Positions 893 through 63,816 of a stretch of 64,000 bases of DNA are shown here, one piece after another (position 1 is the stretch's first letter; every line of letters begins with the position of its first letter). Source of the stretch: Candidatus Woesearchaeota archaeon (GTDB lineage: Archaea > Nanobdellota > Nanobdellia > Pacearchaeales > GW2011-AR1); the NCBI GenBank assembly GCA_964514585.1, contig CAZETU010000001.1, forward strand, positions 165,184-229,183, written 5' to 3'. Position numbers and translations under genes: made by a program. The notes under the pieces are model-generated. The model was given only the letters and a program-made list of their open reading frames with translations, was not told the DNA's origin and did not search any database.

Positions 893-2257
893 TTATGCGC
901 CAAAGAATCCTTTTAGGGCTGGATTCATATCAACCGCGTGCTGCTGTGCAATATTCTGATACAACTGATACAAAATCATGATTGCCAAAAGAATCGCAGT
1001 CCCACCAACCAAAGCTCCAAGTAAATTTGCAACACTAGCCAGGATACCAATCGCAGCTCCACCCATAACCGTCAATGGCGTAACGTACCTCTTCAAAATC
1101 GACTCCAAAACTCTCTCATCTTTCCTAAACCCAGGCATACTCATCCCAGAACTAACAATCTTTTTCGCCTGACTCCTAGCATCCATCCCAGAAGTTCCAA
1201 CCCAAAAGAAGGCAAATAGAATAGAAAATAAAGTATAAAACAAAACATGACCAACAGCTTGTAAAGCATAAACCCATCTAAAACTCCCAGTAATTATCGT
1301 CTCTAAAATAGGAGTAGAATGAATCCAGTACGCAAATCCAGAAATAGGAGTCCCACTAGAAAATCCTCCAAGGAAAGTTGGACTACCCAACCAATTCTGT
1401 AACAACGACGCAAACAACTGCAAGTTAGCAGCCAAAGCCGAAACTAAAATAACAGGAATAACACCAGCATAGAAAAACTGCAAAGGCCACTTAACCGAAT
1501 GCCCCCGAATTCTATCAAACGCCAACGGAATCTCAACCTTCAAGCTCTGAGCAAAAACAACAGCCAAAAATAAAGCAGCAGTAACCAAAATAGGAAACAA
1601 CGCCCTGGCAATCCCAGTCCCATCCCCAGCAGCAACACTGACTACCAGCGCCAAAACTTTACCACTAGCCTCAAACGTCCCTTGAGTTCCTATAAACTGA
1701 AACAACTGTGAAAATAATCTCCAACCAATACCACCAGCAATAAACAAACTAACTCCAGAACCAAAGCCCCATTTCTGGATAACTTCATCCATAAAAATAA
1801 TCAGAAAACCACCAAGGCACAACTGAAAAATCACAAGCCCAGTAAACCCAGGTTCAGCCTGAATACCCTTCATCAAAACATAAACCAATGACTCGAAAAT
1901 CACAAACGCGAATGCCAACAACTTCTGCAAAGCCTGAAAAAATTTCTTACCCTCGTCAGTATTCGTATCAATATTCAAAATCTGCGCCCCATTCAGCAAC
2001 TGCAAAATAATAGAAGCCATAACAATAGGACCAATACCAAGCGAAATAATCGAACCAAAAGAAGTCCCAAGCATAATAGCCAAATATTCAAATCGTGACA
2101 TCGCATTCCCAGAAATACCAAACAACGGAATATTAGACAAAATAAAATAAAACACCAAAATCACCAACGTCCATTTCAACTTAACATTAAAACTAACCTT
2201 CTTCTCAGTCGGCCCCCTTACCTCGGGCAAATTGTGCAACAAATCTCTCAAAGCCAT
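893..2257 (-). CDS. secY: Preprotein translocase subunit SecY
   Basis: 454 aa, 10-TM profile with typical SecY motifs. Lies at the end of the r-protein operon after L15. Confidence 0.9.
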   Translation of the reverse strand: MALRDLLHNLPEVRGPTEKKVSFNVKLKWTLVILVFYFILSNIPLFGISGNAMSRFEYLAIMLGTSFGSIISLGIGPIVMASIILQLLNGAQILNIDTNTDEGKKFFQALQKLLAFAFVIFESLVYVLMKGIQAEPGFTGLVIFQLCLGGFLIIFMDEVIQKWGFGSGVSLFIAGGIGWRLFSQLFQFIGTQGTFEASGKVLALVVSVAAGDGTGIARALFPILVTAALFLAVVFAQSLKVEIPLAFDRIRGHSVKWPLQFFYAGVIPVILVSALAANLQLFASLLQNWLGSPTFLGGFSSGTPISGFAYWIHSTPILETIITGSFRWVYALQAVGHVLFYTLFSILFAFFWVGTSGMDARSQAKKIVSSGMSMPGFRKDERVLESILKRYVTPLTVMGGAAIGILASVANLLGALVGGTAILLAIMILYQLYQNIAQQHAVDMNPALKGFFGA

Positions 2258-36200: not shown

Positions 36201-36854
36201 ATGAAAACCCTATTCATAGAAACAAAACGAAAATTCAAAGATTCAGATATAAATCTATCCTTATTAGATAATCTAAAAGGCAAAACAATCTCGCTAGCAG
36301 CCACTATCCAATATATAGACCTCATCCCAAAAGTAAAATCCTACTTAGAATCCAAGAACAAAAAAGTCATAATCAAAAAAGGAGCACATTACAAAGCCCA
36401 CATCCTAGGCTGCAATTCATCAGCACTAGATAAATCAGCCGACACCCTTCTCGTAATCACCGACGGAAAATTCCACGCAATAAATAACGCAATCCAACTC
36501 CAAAAACCAATCCTAGTTTTCTCTGGCAAAACCCTAGAAAGAATCACCCAAAAAGAAATCGACGACCACAACAAAAAAACACTAACAAAAAAGAAAAAAT
36601 TCCTAACAGCCGATAAAGTAGGATTATTAGTCTCATCAAAACACGGCCAACACGCTAAAAACATTAAAGCAATAAAAAAACAAATAGAAAAATTCGGCAA
36701 AAAAGCCTACATCTTTGAATCAAACAATATAGACACGTCAGAATTCGAGAACTTCCCCCAAATCAAAATGTGGATAAACACAGCATGCTTCGGTCTAGCA
36801 AGAGACGACATGCGAATCATAAACCTTTCAGATATATTAGAATTTATAAATTAA
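36201..36854 (+). CDS. dph2: Dph2-family diphthamide synthesis radical-SAM enzyme, N-terminally truncated (domains 2+3 only)
   Basis: HILGCNSSALD...LLVITDGKFHAINNAIQLQKPILVF and VGLLVSSKHGQ...INTACFGLARDD align with Dph2 domains 2 and 3 including two of the three cluster Cys. No in-frame upstream extension exists (TAA 3 codons upstream). TATA at -26. Confidence 0.5.
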   Translation: MKTLFIETKRKFKDSDINLSLLDNLKGKTISLAATIQYIDLIPKVKSYLESKNKKVIIKKGAHYKAHILGCNSSALDKSADTLLVITDGKFHAINNAIQLQKPILVFSGKTLERITQKEIDDHNKKTLTKKKKFLTADKVGLLVSSKHGQHAKNIKAIKKQIEKFGKKAYIFESNNIDTSEFENFPQIKMWINTACFGLARDDMRIINLSDILEFIN

Positions 36855-36910
36855 GAAACGCCACAGCCATTTTGACTGGAAGTTTGTGTCTTTGGTGGGT
36901 GGATATTGAC

Positions 36911-37591
36911 TTAAGGAAGGTTAGACAATTCAACCCATAAAATTACGTCTGCAAGAATTCTGGAATCTTTAATTTGTAAGCCCGAAGCCTTTGCTATCTT
37001 TTTCATATCCTCAAGGCTATATGATTTTGATTTTAATCCACTTTCTGAATAAAATATCTCATCAACTTCATTAATTTTAAAAATTTTAATTCCTACAGTT
37101 TTATACCAATTCTTTCTGTCCTCTAGGGTTCCTTTTAGATATACACTTATGAAAATACTTTTCTTGGTCACTTGTGAAATTTGTTTTAAAGTTTGAACTT
37201 CGTCCTTAACATTCCCTAGGGTATTCCAAACACAAAGGCTAAAATCAAAATATTTTAAAGGAAACATTTTACTTATATCTTCCAAATCTCCTTGGAGAAT
37301 TTTAACATTAGAAAAATTCTTTGCAACTCTTCTTGACTCTTTTAGCATAAGATGTGCATTATCTATTCCTATGAATTCCTTTACAAATGGAGCAATTTTT
37401 GGAATTAATCTTCCGATCCCAACTCCTGCCTCAAGAATTTGAGATTTTATATTTAGCTTAGTTCTTAACAGCCTCATTTCATCATTTATATATTTTTGAT
37501 ATTTTTTGGGATAATATTTAGGAATCAGTGCTTTGAATTCTCCTTGTTCAAAATCTTCTCCTTCAAAAAACTTTTCTTTCATTACTCCCAC
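36911..37591 (-). CDS. Class I SAM-dependent methyltransferase (low-GC, T-rich locus)
   Basis: Motif I ILEAGVGIGRLIPKI and post-I acidic GIDNAHLML. Confidence 0.6.
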   Translation of the reverse strand: MGVMKEKFFEGEDFEQGEFKALIPKYYPKKYQKYINDEMRLLRTKLNIKSQILEAGVGIGRLIPKIAPFVKEFIGIDNAHLMLKESRRVAKNFSNVKILQGDLEDISKMFPLKYFDFSLCVWNTLGNVKDEVQTLKQISQVTKKSIFISVYLKGTLEDRKNWYKTVGIKIFKINEVDEIFYSESGLKSKSYSLEDMKKIAKASGLQIKDSRILADVILWVELSNLP

Positions 37592-37722
37592 AAGCTTTCT
37601 AATTATAAAAAACTTATCCCCCTATCTATCACAAGTACGTGGTCGACAACACTTAAAACGTTCACCCATGGAAGTCACAAAAGTCATGGACGCCCCAACC
37701 GACTCCCAGTAAAAGTACACAA

Positions 37723-37803
37723 GATAACGTACGAGATTCACTCTCGGGAGTTATCCCTAAAAATTCTGCAGAATTTTCCCAACGATTTTTTCACCAGAAA
37801 AAA
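37723..37803. repeat. Copy A of a ~85-nt three-hairpin element (candidate structured ncRNA / bidirectional terminator / protein-binding site)
   Basis: Hairpin 0 is GATAAC-GTA-CGAG-ATTCACT-CTCG-GGA-GTTATC. Hairpin 1 is AAAATTC-TGCA-GAATTTT, an 18-bp perfect palindrome. Hairpin 2 is TTTTTTC-ACCA-GAAAAAA. Copy B is at 45526-45607. Confidence 0.6.
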
Positions 37804-37812
37804 TGTTGATGT

Positions 37813-38181
37813 TTACACCTTCGCCATCGAGAACACAGTTTTCAGCGCAACAATAATCGTAGCAGGTACAAATAACACCAATAGCGATGTCAAAACATTC
37901 CTAAGAGCAGTCACAACATAATTATTCAAAGCAACATATTTCAAAGGCTCAACTCCAAGCGCCCCAACAATAACCAAAGAAAGACTCGCTAACAAAAAAG
38001 TTTGAGAATTTTTATCGCCAACATTCATAAAACCAACGATAAGACCAATAAGAACCAAAGCAGAATAAAACAGCCCACCAGCCTGCTCAAGCGATTTATT
38101 GAATAATCCAAAAACAATAGCCAAAACAACACCTGTCAAGAACGCATATGCCCCCAGCAAATTCTCTCTCGATTTCACCAT
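37813..38181 (-). CDS. Hypothetical membrane protein (4 TM)
   Basis: 122-aa hydrophobic ORF. Confidence 0.45.
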   Translation of the reverse strand: MVKSRENLLGAYAFLTGVVLAIVFGLFNKSLEQAGGLFYSALVLIGLIVGFMNVGDKNSQTFLLASLSLVIVGALGVEPLKYVALNNYVVTALRNVLTSLLVLFVPATIIVALKTVFSMAKV

Positions 38182-42433: not shown

Positions 42434-42480
42434 TAAAAAAAGCCCTTCAGGATCTTCCTTGCGGAAGACCCCGAAGGGCG
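42434..42480 (-). terminator. Intrinsic-terminator-like GC hairpin plus T7 tract in the 3' UTR of the S-layer gene
   Basis: Minus strand reads GCCCTTCGGGGTCTTCCGCAAGGAAGATCCTGAAGGGC followed by TTTTTTT. It is a nested 7-bp + 6-bp stem with a TTGC tetraloop. Confidence 0.5.
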
Positions 42481-45126: not shown

Positions 45127-45483
45127 ATGCCCCAAAAAAAGAAAACAAAAATAAGATATGTTGATGTAAATGTTAACAAAGGAAACTTCGTCTCAAAGTT
45201 AATGGGCGGCAAAAAAACCCACGATTTCTCAGATGTAAAACTCCTCAGAAGTCTACTGAGCAACGAAAAAGCACGAATTCTTTATGCCATAAAAACCCAA
45301 AAACCAAGATCAATTTACGGGTTAGCCAAACTCCTGGGTCGAGATTTCAAATCGGTCAGAGAAGATATTAAAGTCCTAGAAAGATTCGGCTTCATCGATT
45401 TTCATTCAGAAAAAGTCGGCAAAAGAGAATCCCTAATGCCAGTTCTGGTAGCAGACAGACTCCAAATAATCATAGATATCTAA
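45127..45483 (+). CDS. Winged-helix (ArsR/MarR/TrmB-like) transcriptional regulator
   Basis: Contains LLRSLLSNEKARILYAIKTQKPRSIYGLAKLLGRDFKSVREDIKVLERFGFIDF. TATA CATATATAC at -26. Confidence 0.5.
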   Translation: MPQKKKTKIRYVDVNVNKGNFVSKLMGGKKTHDFSDVKLLRSLLSNEKARILYAIKTQKPRSIYGLAKLLGRDFKSVREDIKVLERFGFIDFHSEKVGKRESLMPVLVADRLQIIIDI

Positions 45484-45525
45484 ATATACACAAGCGCCGA
45501 AAAGCGGCGCAACAAAAACACATAA

Positions 45526-45607
45526 GATATCGTACAAGATTCACTCTTGGAAGATATCCAAAGGAATTCTGCAGAATTCCCCCAAAGAATTTTGCACCAG
45601 CAAAATT
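45526..45607. repeat. Copy B of the three-hairpin element, preceded by GC hairpin GCGCCG-AAAA-CGGCGC (45494-45510)
   Basis: Hairpin 0 is GATATC-GTA-CAAG-ATTCACT-CTTG-GAA-GATATC. Hairpin 1 is GGAATTC-TGCA-GAATTCC. Hairpin 2 is AATTTTGC-ACCA-GCAAAATT. All three stems show compensatory changes relative to copy A. Confidence 0.6.
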
Positions 45608-45615
45608 TTTAACGT

Positions 45616-46113
45616 CTAAAAGACCTTACAAACCTTCATTCGAATTACTAAACTATCACTACCAGAAACAATACTTCTCTGCGAAGCCAAAACATTCCCC
45701 GTGCAATTCCCCTCATCTATCCTCAAAAGCCCCTGCGTCCCATCATCTTCCTTAACAAAAAAATCAAGCTGATAAGCATTCACACTTGCCTCACTTTCCA
45801 TCAAATCCCCCAAAATATCACTCAGACTCTCATTTAGATAATCACACGCAGAAACCCCCAAATTGCTGCACCGATCACCCTCATAACAACTCTTAAACAA
45901 ATCCTCAACAGCATCATAATCCGGCTCGTAAACAATCGCACAATCAGTCGTATATTTCATCAAAGCACTCAATATATGACTCGTCTCTAAACTATCGCTC
46001 TCATCCGGCCCATCTCTAAGCGAAATCACCAAAAAAACCATCAACCCAACAACAACCAACACAACTATCAAAACAAACCCAACCATCTCCTGCTGCCCCT
46101 TATTGTTCCTCAT
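45616..46113 (-). CDS. Class III signal peptide (archaeal type IV pilin-like) protein
   Basis: N-terminus MRNNKGQQEMVGFVLIVVLVVVGLMVFLV has the KG/Q prepilin-like cleavage motif followed by a hydrophobic helix. Confidence 0.5.
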   Translation of the reverse strand: MRNNKGQQEMVGFVLIVVLVVVGLMVFLVISLRDGPDESDSLETSHILSALMKYTTDCAIVYEPDYDAVEDLFKSCYEGDRCSNLGVSACDYLNESLSDILGDLMESEASVNAYQLDFFVKEDDGTQGLLRIDEGNCTGNVLASQRSIVSGSDSLVIRMKVCKVF

Positions 46114-49593: not shown

Positions 49594-52026
49594 TTACAAA
49601 AAATCCTGAGTCGGTCTCACAACAACCGAACAATCAGCGTCCTCATTTCTAAAGGCATCACGACACTTAATATAATAAGTCTCCTGATCATTCCACTCAG
49701 CAACGTGAACACTAGAATTAGAATAAGGCATCTCAACTCCCTCATCAAAACTAAAGTCACAATTATTAAACGAATAAGCACACTCACTATCCCGAACAGT
49801 CACAAGCTTCAACATCTGATCTTCCTCATAAATCCTCGCAACAACCGGCGCATTAGTATCAACATCCAAAGTAAAACTCGCAATATCTAAAGCTAAATTC
49901 CCACCCTCATCGATACACTTAACATAATAATCATGCTCACCACCAACCAAATCTAACCTCTGCGTATGAATTCCATCATCAGTATTCGTATCATAAAACA
50001 TAATGTAGTCATTCTCATTACCAGTCTCAGAATAATAACAAACCGACCGACCATTATTACAACCATAAATCGTCTCAGCATATAACTCAACAGGCGCAGG
50101 ACTAACAGCCCCAAAAATGGTCCCATTAGGCATCAATCTTCTCAACTTCAAACCAGTGCTCCCTCTGAGGCTAAACTTAAAACTCTCTTTATTCTCATTC
50201 CTATCATTCTCTTCAACTCCAGGCTGATCCTTACATCTTACATAAAAGTCAGCTCCATCCCTAGGAATCCCACTAAGCTCACCTTGACAAGTAAACAACT
50301 GCGCCGCATTCATTTGATAAAGCTCACTCGAACAACTCATCTCATTTTGCATATTATCATAATCCTGATCCTGAGTACTCCACCTACAAGTCGACGGCTC
50401 ATTAACATAAAACTCAACCATAGCAGTATCCTGTTCCTCAGCAACACACCCACCATTAACAACCGAAGTAGCCTTAACCTGCGGAGCAGTCACGTCTGGC
50501 GACGGATCAATACAAAACCGAATAGCATACTCAGCCGAATTCTCATTCCCATTCTTATCCTTACACCTCAAATAAAACGTCAAATCCTTCCCATTCTCCA
50601 AAACAAGACCAGTCCCCTCAATCTCAGCAGCCCCAGGCAAACTAAACTTCTCCGAATGATTATAAGAATACAAATTACTCGACCCCACATAACTAATCAT
50701 CTCATCAAATGTCTCAGTATGATTAAAATCAATCTTACACTGCGCTGGCTCATTAACAGTAATCCCAAACTCCAACGGTGTAAACGCTTTTAAGCACCCA
50801 TCACTAGATTCTAAATTAACAATCTTAAATCCAGGACCAGGCGGCGAAATCTTAACATCAGTATACTTATGCCCCAAACTAAGCTCATTATAATTCGGCT
50901 TAATCACAGGCATATCAACATCCCGAGGATTAATATTCACACACTTCTCATCCACTGTTCCCTCATTAACAATCTCACAATTCTGTCCCAAAGATTTACA
51001 CCTATACTCAGAACAAGGCAAAGAGTCATCATTACAAATCTCACAATCATTCCCTCCCGACGGAGCCTGCCACGGCATACACTCAAAAGTCACAACCTCA
51101 GTATCCATCTTCTGATACATAGCAACAAAAACAACAGCCCCAATCCCAACACCAACCAAAGGATTAGAAAGCCACTTCCAAGACTGCGACTCAAGAATTT
51201 TACTATAAGTAGAAAAAAACCTATAAGATCCAGCTCCAGCGGCCAAAGCCGTAGACAAAGCCTCAGTATTTTGTTCCTCCATCCCAAACAAACTTCCAAT
51301 CATCTGACCAGCAAAATAAGCAATTCCTGCCCAAACCAAACCAGAGACAGCTGCATCAGCAAAAGTTCCTTTAATAAGTCCAAGATGAGAAGATCCAAAT
51401 TTAGTACTAGTTTGGCCAGCACTAGTAACCGGAGTCTTAGCAACAACGGAAGAAGTTCCTTCAACAGTTTTTGTAACACCATTAGAATTAGTAACGACCA
51501 TATCATAAGTACCTTTTTCAGCACCAGCAGTAACAGTGGCAGTTGTTCCGTCACCTAAAGCTGCAGTTTCAATACCTTTCTCTCCCATGTATTGTAAGGT
51601 TCCACCATTATAAGTTCCAGCAGGAAGTTGGGTTGTTAAGTCAGCAGCATAAGTAGTGGTTCCAGACCAAGAGCCCGTATTGCCCGAGGCGTAATTCGTA
51701 ACATCAACCTTAGGAGCATTAGAAGGAGGAGTTGGAAGTTTTGAAGTTTCCCCAGCCCCAGCGGATCCCTTAAGTCCCCCAGCACCACCAGTCTCAACAG
51801 TAGAGGTTCCTGCTTCTGCAGCATGTTGAGATGTAATAACACTACCATCGCCAATTATACCATCACCATTAATATCATATTGAAGGTCAACTTCACTAGG
51901 AGTGCCAGCACTAACAAATTCAATATTCCCAATCATAAATGCAAACGCAAAAACAGACAAAATAAACAAGCCTAATTCAAAACTAGCAACGGATTTTTTA
52001 ACAAATAAATCAGACCCTTTTTTCAT
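49594..52026 (-). CDS. Large Cys-rich surface protein, 'module B' paralog (signal peptide, G/A/S-rich TM region, Cys-rich C-terminal domains)
   Basis: 810 aa. After the TM region, FECMPWQAPSGGNDCEICNDDSLPCSEYRCKSLGQNCEI is paralogous to FECKPWQAPSGADDCEKCNGDPLKPCSEYRCASLGAACEI in the 1262-aa protein. Confidence 0.55.
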   Translation of the reverse strand: MKKGSDLFVKKSVASFELGLFILSVFAFAFMIGNIEFVSAGTPSEVDLQYDINGDGIIGDGSVITSQHAAEAGTSTVETGGAGGLKGSAGAGETSKLPTPPSNAPKVDVTNYASGNTGSWSGTTTYAADLTTQLPAGTYNGGTLQYMGEKGIETAALGDGTTATVTAGAEKGTYDMVVTNSNGVTKTVEGTSSVVAKTPVTSAGQTSTKFGSSHLGLIKGTFADAAVSGLVWAGIAYFAGQMIGSLFGMEEQNTEALSTALAAGAGSYRFFSTYSKILESQSWKWLSNPLVGVGIGAVVFVAMYQKMDTEVVTFECMPWQAPSGGNDCEICNDDSLPCSEYRCKSLGQNCEIVNEGTVDEKCVNINPRDVDMPVIKPNYNELSLGHKYTDVKISPPGPGFKIVNLESSDGCLKAFTPLEFGITVNEPAQCKIDFNHTETFDEMISYVGSSNLYSYNHSEKFSLPGAAEIEGTGLVLENGKDLTFYLRCKDKNGNENSAEYAIRFCIDPSPDVTAPQVKATSVVNGGCVAEEQDTAMVEFYVNEPSTCRWSTQDQDYDNMQNEMSCSSELYQMNAAQLFTCQGELSGIPRDGADFYVRCKDQPGVEENDRNENKESFKFSLRGSTGLKLRRLMPNGTIFGAVSPAPVELYAETIYGCNNGRSVCYYSETGNENDYIMFYDTNTDDGIHTQRLDLVGGEHDYYVKCIDEGGNLALDIASFTLDVDTNAPVVARIYEEDQMLKLVTVRDSECAYSFNNCDFSFDEGVEMPYSNSSVHVAEWNDQETYYIKCRDAFRNEDADCSVVVRPTQDFL

Positions 52027-60027: not shown

Positions 60028-63000
60028 TCATAATGCACGAGCAGTAATAGAGCATTCCCTAGGAATATTTCCAAACTCGTCCTCGCACTTAATATAATAA
60101 GTATCCCCCCGAGTCGTAGAAAATGAATGCGTCTCCCCTACACCAAGCATTTCACCACTGTCCCAATCAAACCTACAAGTGCTAGTTGAATACCGACAAT
60201 CCGCATCTTCATTCGTCACAATATACATCGTCCCACCATTCTGCCAAACCCGAGCAACCTGCGGCGTCGAAGTATCATGAATAATCCTAAACTCAGTCTC
60301 GCCCCTCACAAAATCCCCAGTCTCATCCGTACACTCAATATAAATATGATTAGTCACAGCCGGCCGATTCAACATCTGCTCATGACTATTACTCTCGCCA
60401 GTCTCAAACATCTGAATCATATTCTCATATCCCGAAAACGAATAAGAACACCAATGATACTCGGCCCCACCAGAAGTATCAACTTCAACATAAATCGTCG
60501 TCACAGTCGTATTAACCTCAAAGTCTTCACTCGGTTCAATTGAATCAATCGCAATCTTTCTCTCAGGCTTCCGAAGCTCATAAACAAAACTCTCAACATT
60601 AGCATTCCTCTCAGTCTCATCAACAACCCACGGCTGATCCATACACTTCACATAATATGTATTCGTCCCATTAGAAACCGGTAAAATATCACTACAAGTA
60701 TATCCCAAAGGATTCGACGGCCGCGCCAAAGTATCATTACAAATCATAGAGTTAGCCATGGCTCCATAATCAACATCCGTAGAACTCCACTTACAAGTCG
60801 ACAACTCATTCGTCACAATACTAACATCCTGCGAAGTTTTCTCAAACCCAATAATCAAATCATTCTTTGGCTCACTCCCACGAATCATCGGCGCAGTCAC
60901 ATCATCACCCTCGACAACACAAAGATCAACCGTATAAAATCCAGGACTCTCATGCCCCTTAACATCTCTACATTTCACATACAGCGTCATATCCCCATTC
61001 CAATCAGCACCCTGACTCTGCCCATGACTAGGATCAGGCAAAAGAAAACTAGTCGTATGATTCCGAATATAAGAATTCCCACCAAGGTCAAATTCCATAT
61101 TCTCAAACTCATTCATAGCAATATCAAACTTACACTGCGCCGGCTCATCAGTCGTAATCCCAAAAACCAACTGAGTATAAGCATCAATGCAACCCCCTCC
61201 AGAAGTAATACTAAAACCGCTTTCACTAATACTAGTATATTCCTCATCTTCAGAAATCATACTTATCGAAGGCCCCAAAACAGGCGGATTAACATCATCA
61301 GGACTCCCATCAACACACATCTCATCCTCAGTCCCCTTATTGATAATCTCACACGCAGCCCCCAAGCTCGCACAACGATATTCAGAGCACGGTTTCAACG
61401 GGTCACCATTACACTTCTCACAATCATCAGCCCCACTCGGAGCCTGCCACGGCTTACACTCAAACTGAACCTCAATCGGGTCACAATCATCCCCTCCAAA
61501 AAATAAAGAAACAATAACCAAGACAACACCTATTATAAATAAAGCAAGACCAAGCACAGGGATGCCCAAAAGAGGAGCGCTATTAGTCAAAAGAGCATAC
61601 CCAGCAATTCCACCTATAAGCCCGCCACCAATAGACATAAGTAAAGATCCGCCGGGACTAAGACCCAAAGATTTCGCAATCATAGCTCCAGCAATCATTC
61701 CAATTCCAAGTCCAATAGCAAATCCAGCGAAAGGAGCCAAGCTTCCAGCCGCCCCAAGTACACTCGTGGACTGAGAAATTGTAGCAACTGCAGAAATTCC
61801 CTCGAGCGCAAGGGCTCCACTCAAAGAACCAATAGTAGAAACAAGTGAAATAAATCCTGCAGCATACCCAATACCAACAGCCCCCATTCCAATATTATTC
61901 ATTAAAGTATCCTCCCCCAATTCCCCAACAGGAGTTTCCAAATCCCCAATCAATCCAGCAGCCTCCAAAAATTCTGTATAATCTTCGACTTCAGCAATTT
62001 GTCCAGGAACAGGCGCAGACATTTTAATCAAATCAGAAATATATTTAGTGCTTAAATCTGGAGAGTTCCTAAGTTTATAATTATCATTATATTCCCCCAA
62101 AATATTTACAGAGCCCCCACAATCCCCAATACCTCTACACATATCATTCATCTCCTCAACAAATCCCGCTCCCAAACATCCTTTATTCGCAACAATCTCG
62201 CATCCTCCCCATGTCTTAGGCTTATACACAACCGTACACGTCTGACTCGCAATCCCACAAAGTTGTTTAGCTGTCATCTCATACCTCTCGTCCCGAAGAT
62301 TAAATCCGCCAGGATATCTAGGCATACAAACATCAAAACTAAACTTATCAGCAATTTTAACTTCCTCAACTCGACAATTCAAAGTATCCGCACATTCTTC
62401 CATCACATCTTTATCCCCATTCATATCAAGACACTTCCTCCAATTATTAGCAATACAAGCCGCATTCCTAAATTCAACTTCATTCCCCTGGACATCAAAA
62501 GTATTAGTCTGCACACAAATCTGATTTCTATAATCAGCACAAGGCTCTATTTGGACAACACCTTGAGAACAAACATATTTCCAATGCCGACTCCCAACAA
62601 CATCATCTCCATCATCAATCTTCCCATCATACTCACACCATGATTCACCATTCCCATAAATCTCACCCTTAAACTCACAAGACGTTGACCGACAATAAAA
62701 ATTTCCATTATCTACATTAAAATTATCTTCCGAGGCAGATGCACAAATCCCCCCAATAAATCGATTACAATTCCCGCAACTTTCAGAATTAGCATTGCCA
62801 GTTTTGCTAAAATCCCCACAAACATCTTCAGGCTCAGCAACCCTCTCCCAATAATTATAATCATTTAACTTCGACGAATCATAAATATTAGCATAATTCC
62901 CACAAGAATCCAAAAAATAAACCTCATCCTTGCCATCAACACAAGTCGTTTGATCAGTCTTCTCACAAGACGTATTCAAAACCTTAGCTGTACATAAATA

Positions 63001-63816
63001 CCCCTCATTAAACTCACCATTATAACTAAAACAATCGCTCTCCGTAATAAACTTACAATTACCCCCGGCCAAAACACAAGCTCCCTCAGTCTGAATCGAA
63101 GACATCGCCGCACATTGCCCCTCATTAACCTCAGGCCTCCAATCAGTTACAGAATTAGGCCCAAGTGCCAACTGCGTCGTATCAACCTCACATTGTCCCC
63201 GTGTTTCAAAAATAGTTTCAGTTCCAAGAATACAACAGCCAAGTCGCGCCTCAAGCATATTACAATTAGGATCAGCTACCCAACTCGTCGGACAATCACC
63301 CTCTAAAACACTCCTATCATAAATTCCCAAACTCTCATCATAGCAACACCCCTTCTTACAAAAAGAAGTAGAAGCGCACAGACTCCCCTCGGCAAAAGGG
63401 GACGTCTCTACGCAACTCAACGGAGCAGAAGTGGCGCATTTCTCTCCATTCTTAGCTAAAAAGCAACACCCGACATTAGCGGCATTGGACGAGATTGAGA
63501 AAGATTCCACAGTAACTTCCTCAGTTAAAATATAACCGGTTTCGAGTGTCAAATTTATTTCTCTTGCCGAAGCCAACGGCAAGATTGGTTCTTTCAAACC
63601 CTCCACAATTGCATCTGAAAGTTTCCTAAAAATCGACTTCGCCGGCTTAATATCCAACGTAGCCATTCTTTCCGCTATCTGTCTATCTCTCTCTTCATAC
63701 TGCTTATCCAATTCTTCAAAAACTCCATCCGTTGCAGCAATCCCATAAGAAAATGCAAACATAGCCAAAAGCATCAAGGTCAATTCAAAACTCGCAACTA
63801 TCTTTTTACCTTCCAT
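60028..63816 (-). CDS. Giant (1262 aa) Cys-rich surface protein: module A + Gly-zipper multi-TM region + module B in one polypeptide
   Basis: The N-terminal half is paralogous to the 593-aa protein, sharing the motifs CGNC, EPCADYRNQIC and GDCGGSVNILGEY. The central region is G/A/S/I/L-rich and hydrophobic. The C-terminal half is paralogous to the 810-aa protein from FECKPWQAPSG onward. Confidence 0.6.
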   Translation of the reverse strand: MEGKKIVASFELTLMLLAMFAFSYGIAATDGVFEELDKQYEERDRQIAERMATLDIKPAKSIFRKLSDAIVEGLKEPILPLASAREINLTLETGYILTEEVTVESFSISSNAANVGCCFLAKNGEKCATSAPLSCVETSPFAEGSLCASTSFCKKGCCYDESLGIYDRSVLEGDCPTSWVADPNCNMLEARLGCCILGTETIFETRGQCEVDTTQLALGPNSVTDWRPEVNEGQCAAMSSIQTEGACVLAGGNCKFITESDCFSYNGEFNEGYLCTAKVLNTSCEKTDQTTCVDGKDEVYFLDSCGNYANIYDSSKLNDYNYWERVAEPEDVCGDFSKTGNANSESCGNCNRFIGGICASASEDNFNVDNGNFYCRSTSCEFKGEIYGNGESWCEYDGKIDDGDDVVGSRHWKYVCSQGVVQIEPCADYRNQICVQTNTFDVQGNEVEFRNAACIANNWRKCLDMNGDKDVMEECADTLNCRVEEVKIADKFSFDVCMPRYPGGFNLRDERYEMTAKQLCGIASQTCTVVYKPKTWGGCEIVANKGCLGAGFVEEMNDMCRGIGDCGGSVNILGEYNDNYKLRNSPDLSTKYISDLIKMSAPVPGQIAEVEDYTEFLEAAGLIGDLETPVGELGEDTLMNNIGMGAVGIGYAAGFISLVSTIGSLSGALALEGISAVATISQSTSVLGAAGSLAPFAGFAIGLGIGMIAGAMIAKSLGLSPGGSLLMSIGGGLIGGIAGYALLTNSAPLLGIPVLGLALFIIGVVLVIVSLFFGGDDCDPIEVQFECKPWQAPSGADDCEKCNGDPLKPCSEYRCASLGAACEIINKGTEDEMCVDGSPDDVNPPVLGPSISMISEDEEYTSISESGFSITSGGGCIDAYTQLVFGITTDEPAQCKFDIAMNEFENMEFDLGGNSYIRNHTTSFLLPDPSHGQSQGADWNGDMTLYVKCRDVKGHESPGFYTVDLCVVEGDDVTAPMIRGSEPKNDLIIGFEKTSQDVSIVTNELSTCKWSSTDVDYGAMANSMICNDTLARPSNPLGYTCSDILPVSNGTNTYYVKCMDQPWVVDETERNANVESFVYELRKPERKIAIDSIEPSEDFEVNTTVTTIYVEVDTSGGAEYHWCSYSFSGYENMIQMFETGESNSHEQMLNRPAVTNHIYIECTDETGDFVRGETEFRIIHDTSTPQVARVWQNGGTMYIVTNEDADCRYSTSTCRFDWDSGEMLGVGETHSFSTTRGDTYYIKCEDEFGNIPRECSITARAL

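Follow-up and report, generated by a model that had tools for sequence, protein, structure and literature searches.

DPANN archaea have tiny, tightly packed genomes, and to our knowledge little is known of their mobile DNA. We focus here on a 64,000-nt stretch of such a genome (the window), in which a short sequence that folds into three hairpins occurs twice, as copies A and B, with every stem preserved although the letters of the stems differ. The question is why two copies of a sequence at gene ends should keep their pairing and not their bases, and whether the structure serves the genes beside it or the element itself. A sequence-only reading of the locus had explained the pattern by selection on secondary structure or on a dimer-binding palindrome, and had framed the copies as a regulatory RNA or an operator within an accessory region.

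The element and its two copies

Ungapped alignment of 37715-37810 with 45518-45613 gives 74 identical positions out of 96 (77%), and a repeat finder carries the similarity to about 37711-37815 versus 45514-45618, with 78% identity over 105 nt (Table 1). The sequence-only reading had thus located the element correctly, every sequence it quoted is found in its place, and its figure of about 80% identity is reproduced over the 81 nt that it considered; only its limits were drawn too narrowly, as the similarity runs slightly further. Neither the ~96-nt core nor the 130-nt insertion that contains copy B holds a plausible ORF.

A covariance model built from A and B and run with filters off over the 64-kb window returns only these two copies, at 118 and 116 bits, and the next non-self match in the window scores 14 bits. 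The copy number of two refers to the window and to the identical strain contigs. Motif scans with mismatches allowed found no further copies in the ~0.6 Mb of fetched DNA. Loop-anchored pattern scans gave one match in GTDB genomes, two in IMG/VR and 40 in JGI metagenome contigs, all of which fail the covariance model; we regard these as chance matches, and the negative is a weak one, since the collections evidently lack the source organism.

The two copies are placed alike relative to the minus-strand genes on their right, the right end of copy A lying 1 nt from the stop codon (37813-37815) of a 122-aa gene. That both copies lie between gene ends, as had been proposed, is correct for copy B, which sits between the convergent stops of an HTH gene and a 165-aa gene, and incorrect for copy A, which has a gene 3' end on one side and the promoter side of the next gene on the other. 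The T-run described after copy B is present there, while copy A has none.

Table 1. Coordinates of the element, its parts and associated features (window positions unless a contig is named)
Feature	Position	Strand	Description
Copy A	~37715-37811	+	TACACAAG...GTTGATG; three tandem hairpins; covariance model 116.5 bits
A hairpin 0	37723-37755	+	6-bp outer stem GATAAC/GTTATC, 3x3 internal loop GTA/GGA, 5-bp inner stem (CGAG/CTCG), loop TTCAC
A hairpin 1	37760-37777	+	18-nt perfect palindrome AAAATTCTGCAGAATTTT
A hairpin 2	37781-37807, core 37785-37804	+	TTTTTTC-ACCA-GAAAAAA plus 3-4 further closing pairs
Copy B	45518-45613	+	within the 130-nt insertion 45485-45614
B hairpin 0	45526-45558	+	GATATC/GATATC, internal loop GTA/GAA, inner stem CAAGA/TCTTG
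B hairpin 1	45563-45580	+	18-nt perfect palindrome GGAATTCTGCAGAATTCC
B hairpin 2	45588-45607	+	AATTTTGC-ACCA-GCAAAATT, then TTT (T5 run 45606-45610)
Element ends			TATACACAAG... at one, ...TTTTTAACG at the other
B insertion	45485-45614	+	130 nt, absent from sister strain contig L010
Left target-site duplication	45479-45484	+	TCTAAA; holds the HTH stop TAA
Right target-site duplication	45615-45620	+	TCTAAA; holds CTA (= TAG), stop of the minus-strand 165-aa gene
Extra GC-rich hairpin	45494-45510	+	GCGCCG-AAAAG-CGGCGC; left part of the B insertion; absent from copy A
SAM-dependent methyltransferase gene	36911-37582	-	Pfam assignment; lineage-specific addition; copy A ~140 nt upstream of gene start
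Nested-stem elements	L067 4975-5095, 5925-6060; L068 60-175, 1003-1140; L070 ~270-400, 1222-1305		beside methyltransferase homologs 73-74% identical

Structure and compensatory changes

In the stems, pairing and not primary sequence is conserved. The structure common to A and B has 29 pairs, and all 58 of its 58 cells are Watson-Crick; the counts were taken from A and B themselves, and a MAFFT alignment that was out of structural register was not used for them. Seven of the 29 pairs have changed on both sides, none has changed on one side only and none is broken, and pairing falls to 28-55% when the 3' partners are slid by 1-3 columns. The confinement of all 14 stem differences to seven complete pairs has a placement chance of 1.5e-7, or ~1e-8 to 1e-10 when complementarity is also required, and the pattern is thus far beyond chance. 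The constraint on loops and spacers is no weaker than that on the stems, with 3 of 29 unpaired columns differing between A and B versus 14 of 58 paired ones (p = 0.16, not significant alone). Each stem difference had been said to be matched on the other arm, the loops and spacers to be conserved, and the structure to be under selection; the compensatory pattern is real, with seven double changes and 29 of 29 pairs retained in both copies. Perfect covariation of two copies alone does not amount to a functional RNA gene.

The pairing suggests hairpins formed at the level of DNA, because no G-T pair occurs among the 58 pairs of the two copies and because hairpin 1 is a spacer-free palindrome. The stems are all perfectly palindromic on either strand, which is what hairpins in DNA would show. 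DNA folding gives a picture similar to that of RNA, with the same three hairpins on either strand, and RNA folding gives z scores against dinucleotide shuffles of -4.1 and -7.4 on the plus strand and of -3.7 and -4.3 on the minus strand. The 64 kb contain 23 perfect hairpins of at least 7 bp, four of them in copies A and B.

Genomic setting and relatives

The surroundings of the element, taken earlier for an accessory region, are core chromosome. The window carries the S10/spc ribosomal-protein cluster, SecY, L1/L10, FtsZ, Spt5-L11, tRNA-Pro, prefoldin, SepF and Dph2, followed by cell-surface genes, and the gene order from Spt5 to past the pilin-like genes is the same in five Pacearchaeota relatives. 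The HTH protein next to copy B belongs to Pfam family HVO_A0114 and has hundreds of homologs at 75-86% identity, several of which are labelled Pacearchaeota or Nanoarchaeota; the source is therefore a DPANN archaeon of Pacearchaeota-like type. In relatives (L012-L018, L022) the HTH gene and a convergent 160-183-aa gene have overlapping or nearly abutting stop codons, and at the other junction the gap from Dph2 to the convergent 122-aa gene is 8 nt, with the methyltransferase absent.

The covariance model detects no copy in 135 kb of syntenic DNA from relatives, and in those reached via the HTH gene (L012-L022) synteny is kept and the element is absent. A covariance-model search of the rest of the genome and of related genomes had been suggested as a check; over the window and the syntenic DNA of relatives it recovers A and B only. 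With neither space for the element nor a model match at either junction in the relatives, both copies are, on this comparison, lineage-specific insertions at convergent gene junctions. The proposed link to the adjacent HTH gene is not supported either: in every relative in which the junction was read, the HTH gene abuts or overlaps the next gene and the element is absent. The adjacency reflects the place where the copy landed, because the HTH gene is kept in relatives that lack the element. Scanning of ~40 window ORFs revealed no transposase, HUH enzyme or integrase, and no RAYT, TnpA or TnpB genes were seen in the window.

Filled and empty sites at copy B

Of 20 contigs retrieved by exact-protein look-ups, 19 match the window at 100% or 99.9% identity. 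The remaining one, L010, comes from a sister strain with the same HTH protein; it lacks 45485-45614 exactly and is 95% identical upstream and 88% identical downstream. The empty site in L010 reads ...ATAGACA[TCTAAA]AAACCTTACAAAC, and the filled site in the window reads ...ATAGATA[TCTAAA]TATACAC...TTAACG[TCTAAA]AGACCTTACAAAC, the hexamer TCTAAA occurring twice around the insertion in the window and once in L010. The HTH and 165-aa genes stay intact because the duplicated hexamer holds both of their overlapping stops. At the level of these sequences, copy B is thereby shown to be a recent insertion, made after the split from the sister strain, with a 6-bp target duplication. An insertion is more parsimonious than a precise deletion, because the empty state matches distant relatives. 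The duplication could come from repair-mediated or templated insertion instead of transposition. No terminal inverted repeats stand out, a comparison of the first and last 30 nt of the B insertion in seven phases giving best values of 4-5 against a shuffle mean of 4.3-4.8, and BLAST of the insertion against phage and plasmid collections gave nothing meaningful.

Copy B probably does not derive from the copy A that we see today. The host lineages of the window and L010 have diverged by 5-11%, with 15 synonymous changes over 357 nt and 94.8% identity in the non-coding flank, versus a difference of 23% between A and B, from which we infer that B was not copied from the present A after the split. 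The donor of B would instead be a third family member, either in the source genome or elsewhere.

In the left part of the insertion, the segment 45486-45525 reads ACACAAG[CGCCGAAAAGCGGCGCAACAAAA]ACACATAAG, with the extra GC-rich hairpin set between near-identical repeats of 7-9 nt (ACACAAG / ACACATAAG), and it looks like a nested secondary insertion or duplication. Other contigs stop at 45487, 45525 and 45598, which are positions within the B insertion or at its edge. At the same HTH/165-aa junction, contig L019 (1585-1691), together with L020 and L021, carries an unrelated, hairpin-rich insertion of 86 nt next to an HTH gene 84% identical to that of the window; on its two sides stands a duplicated 21-nt stretch from the end of the HTH gene, ACAAATAGTCATAGATAT(C/T)TA. 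The junction appears to be a recurrent landing site.

Readings as RNA structure, small RNA or operator

Given the insertion of copy B and its target duplication, a mobile repeat defined by structure becomes a better reading than a regulatory RNA or an operator, and the readings that assign the element a function in place have to be weighed against it. The most substantial of these takes the element as the 3' UTR of the minus-strand 122-aa and 165-aa genes, selected where it stands because it terminates transcription as a compound structure, protects the RNA from 3' exonucleases or insulates packed transcription units, for copy B in both directions; we consider it rather unlikely, and it is compatible with a mobile origin. 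Both copies start 1-9 nt past a minus-strand stop codon in the same orientation, as expected of such a 3' UTR, and on the minus strand a conserved TGTGT..TTTT(T) follows each of them, so placed that runs of T4-5 come after the whole element in A and B. On either strand hairpin 2 includes a T-run, T6 in A and T4 in B, the AT-rich hairpin 2 of copy B is followed on the plus strand by T5, and the source genome has a hairpin with T7 downstream of the S-layer gene. Archaeal termination, on the other hand, needs oligo-T and not hairpins, whereas an intrinsic terminator is a GC-rich hairpin with a T-run directly behind it. A terminator scan is negative at copy A, and three different hairpins with conserved loops are more than a terminator needs; the lack of any G-U among 58 pairs also speaks against this reading. 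Relatives, furthermore, run the same junctions with overlapping stops and no structure, so that the element is not needed there, and the pattern of presence and absence is left unexplained.

A two-gene family of trans-acting small RNAs of ~90 nt, read from the plus strand, is very improbable. The plus strand does fold more strongly by the z scores given above, its unpaired positions are A/C-rich, and it is only on this strand that the internal loop of hairpin 0 reads G.A / U-G or U-A / A.G; the conserved loops and this tandem G.A / U-R / A.G arrangement look RNA-like. Copy B also has a TATA-like TAAATATA ~30 nt upstream and a T5 at its end, but this TATA-like sequence was made by the insertion junction, and copy A has neither an upstream TATA-like sequence nor a terminal T-run. 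No promoter-like sequence is common to A and B on either strand. Rfam at the gathering threshold finds two tRNAs only in the whole window, and in E-value mode it finds nothing at A and at B noise only (14-15 bits, E = 3-7). With no Rfam match, no shared promoter-like sequence and a T-run at B alone, an independent RNA gene is not borne out, and the absence of G-U pairs and of the element itself from all relatives, including the sister strain, likewise tells against it.

The operator reading, in which the palindromes are bound by dimeric proteins such as the adjacent HVO_A0114-type HTH protein, is scarcely credible. It draws on hairpin 1, a perfect palindrome of 18 bp without spacer in both copies, and on the position of copy B, 43 nt downstream of the HTH gene. 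Downstream, however, is not at the promoter, and the sister strain has the identical HTH protein without the palindromes, the HTH gene being conserved in relatives as well. The outer two base pairs of hairpin 1 differ between A and B, and a dimer-binding palindrome, as had been proposed, would require concerted change in three unrelated palindromes, of which two have loops that are not palindromic.

Three further identities were tried and rejected. A tRNA or split tRNA is contradicted by a negative ARAGORN result and by the 7-nt loop AUUCACU, which has C at anticodon-loop position 37. The differences between A and B are not adenine-specific, as they would be for the template and variable repeats of a DGR, and A and B are not att sites bounding an island of 7.8 kb, because the genes between them are syntenic in relatives without the repeats.

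Copy A and the methyltransferase gene

Copy A is part of a larger gain. Relative to other Pacearchaeota, the junction between Dph2 and the 122-aa gene has acquired the block 36855-37812, which comprises the minus-strand methyltransferase gene, a stretch of ~120 nt in which a TATA-like TTTTTATAAT lies near the gene start, and copy A. No convincing target duplication was found for copy A or for the whole block; copy A has only TACAC (5 nt), which is at chance level. All ten fetched contigs that carry the exact methyltransferase are identical at the copy A locus. Three of them, contigs from independent assemblies (L078, L080, L084), end at 36807-36813, inside the 3' end of Dph2, and these ends, together with those around the B insertion, suggest strain-variable boundaries or repeats at both blocks. 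Inside the methyltransferase gene, at 37296-37320, there is an 8-bp inverted repeat AGAATTTT..AAAATTCT; AAAATTCT is also an arm of A hairpin 1, which is probably a coincidence.

Homologs of the methyltransferase, at 56-74% identity, are found in DPANN and CPR contigs in unrelated contexts, and none were found in IMG/VR. In L068, an unrelated metagenome contig, a structured element adjoins a methyltransferase 74% identical to the neighbour of copy A, and its positions 1076-1122 align with copy A over hairpins 2 and 1 and the CCCAA spacer, 40 of 48 aligned nucleotides being identical. The local score is 43 against 18.7 +/- 2.3 for shuffles, the covariance model gives 18.1 bits, and in hairpin 1 a T-A pair of one sequence is matched by C-G in the other, a compensatory difference. 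An A-run, TTTGGG and then a hairpin with a TGCA(A) loop recur in several further elements that flank these genes. The hairpin module is thus present beyond the source genome and travels with the methyltransferase family.

The elements that flank the closest group of methyltransferase homologs, in L067-L074, are 85-140 nt long and built of nested stems. They start with ..AAC-ATC-GG and end with CC-T-GTT..AAC, and fold into an outer stem of 7 bp that leads through a bulge of 2 nt to a long stem whose top is branched; in L067, L068 and L070 the methyltransferase ORF is bracketed by the inverted repeat AGTTGGCGACA / TGTCGCCAATT. The methyltransferase units of L067, L068 and L070 may be integron-type cassettes in DPANN or CPR contigs.

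This raises the possibility that the element is itself a recombination site of the attC type, or what is left of one. In integrons, attC sites lie 3' of cassette ORFs in arrays, with the integron integrase nearby or elsewhere, and they have paired R'' (RYYYAAC) and R' (GTTRRRY) end boxes, an imperfect hairpin with extrahelical bases, and an unpaired central spacer. On such a reading the methyltransferase gene would form an integron-like cassette with copy A as the site next to it, copy B would be a cassette without an ORF, and the plus strand would correspond to the folded 'bottom' strand. The attC-like elements beside the methyltransferase homologs, one of which holds at its top a module homologous to A hairpins 1 and 2, and the GATAAC...GTTATC of A hairpin 0 are in line with it. 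Integrons and clusters of attC sites have been reported in Nanoarchaeota (Ghaly et al. 2022, PMC9668308).

We nevertheless find this reading quite improbable. First of all, the window copies consist of three side-by-side hairpins with unpaired ends, not of a single long end-to-end hairpin. Second, conserved R''/R' (AAC/GTT) boxes are lacking: in copy B GATATC/GATATC replaces AAC/GTT, so that the triplets are not conserved, and the flanks of copy B are TCTAAA and not GTT. Third, the stems have no extrahelical bases, their sole interruption being the symmetric 3x3 internal loop of hairpin 0. Fourth, the 64-kb window contains no attC array, and no integrase among the ORFs scanned. Finally, the homology between L067 and L070 upstream of the methyltransferase starts elsewhere than at the putative GTT boundary. 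As to its location, copy A does adjoin a mobile-looking gene, the methyltransferase, though on the upstream side of that gene. What the element does share with attC sites is a conserved structure with variable sequence, an association with a mobile accessory gene, the methyltransferase, a partial homology to the branched top of the attC-like elements, and stems that are perfect palindromes at the DNA level.

Comparison with other known elements

Prokaryotic MITE-like elements are small AT-rich, hairpin-forming repeats in intergenic regions or 3' UTRs, with flanking direct repeats (PMC10969869). MITEs are shorter than ~300-500 bp, carry terminal inverted repeats and occur in several copies per genome that are related to an autonomous IS. 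The element resembles those of Coxiella (QMITE2) and of pneumococci (SPRITE/RUP/BOX) in being ~100-130 nt long, non-coding, AT-rich, intergenic or in a 3' UTR, and rich in stable stem-loops, as well as in its flanking direct repeats from target duplication (6 bp at copy B) and in its presence or absence between strains. Unlike a MITE, however, it has no terminal inverted repeats, and no parent IS or transposase is identifiable. Its two copies differ by 23% and every stem change is compensated, while MITEs that have amplified recently tend to be almost identical to one another.

REP sequences are imperfect palindromes of 20-40 nt with a conserved 5' tetranucleotide, present in tens to hundreds of copies and accompanied by a RAYT gene, and the PATEs derived from IS200/IS605 have subterminal hairpins and insert 3' of a fixed short target without target duplication. 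The element is likewise defined by hairpins, lacks terminal inverted repeats and stands at gene 3' ends in a fixed orientation, and as in REP/BIME and PATEs its folded single-stranded DNA might be recognised by an HUH enzyme in trans. It differs in that two copies define no guide tetranucleotide and in that copy B, although it has hairpins near both ends, is flanked by a 6-bp duplication. The best reading is thus of an element akin to MITE, REP or attC and a member of none, and it is best placed, as a variant, among the small structured insertion repeats that bacteria and some archaea are known to have, here in a DPANN archaeon and with an empty site and a target duplication documented.

A probable mobile, structure-defined repeat

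The structural inference from which this analysis started holds, whereas the function given with it, that of a regulatory RNA or an operator within accessory DNA, is not upheld. We hold it moderately probable, on sequence evidence, that A and B are small, non-autonomous, structure-defined insertion elements of ~95 nt (130 nt in B). An enzyme acting in trans to copy or move the element would recognise it by its hairpins and conserved loops, and the structure would have been selected in the lineage of the element, for its propagation, more than at these two loci, because relatives, including the sister strain, do without it. Copies would persist only at 3' gene ends, as the sole dispensable DNA in a compact genome; this fits the view that convergent 3' ends are the only spots that can take ~100 nt without a promoter or ORF being hit. 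After insertion, transcripts of the 122-aa and 165-aa genes on the minus strand would carry the element at their 3' end, and it would be at most a spacer, insulator or terminator between neighbouring transcription units. It probably doubles as 3' spacer or terminator DNA, a role that the T-runs make plausible and that the proposal does not need.

A bolder form of this proposal is that DPANN harbour a hitherto undescribed type of mobile DNA defined by hairpins, to which the element belongs and which duplicates its target without terminal inverted repeats and is linked in evolution to attC-like sites that carry the methyltransferase between DPANN and CPR genomes. We regard this as unlikely. It would allow for a new mechanism based on single strands or on a recombinase, and retro-insertion of a structured RNA would account for variable lengths of duplication (6 nt here, 21 nt in L019), with the overlapping stop codons of convergent genes as favoured landing sites.

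For an element defined by structure, in a DPANN archaeon, the case provides the occupied site together with its empty counterpart and the 6 bp of duplicated target, and ties the element to a methyltransferase gene present in many DPANN and CPR contexts. The element is also a marker of strain-level variation. If the family is multi-copy, it would offer a handle on the entry of genes and non-coding DNA into DPANN genomes, as well as on the enzyme that recognises the hairpins.

Other features of the window

Two further sets of observations concern the cell-surface genes and the window as a whole. The minus-strand genes at 49594-52026 and 60028-63816 encode secreted or surface proteins of 810 aa and 1262 aa that share several segments of 46-84 nt, 72-81% identical and in the same order (repeat families D4, D9, D11 and D20), and are paralogs ~10.4 kb apart. 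Throughout the window (1-64000), the plus strand has a very strong C-over-G skew (GC skew to -0.5) wherever genes lie on the minus strand and a strong A-over-T skew where they lie on the plus strand, the coding strands being markedly purine-rich. The hairpin downstream of the S-layer gene, at 42445-42480 on the minus strand, is GC-rich and nested (GCCCTTCGGGGTCTTCCGCAAGGAAGATCCTGAAGGGC), is followed directly by T7 and lies ~40 nt downstream of the stop codon (42518) of that gene; for an archaeon, it resembles an intrinsic terminator of the bacterial style.
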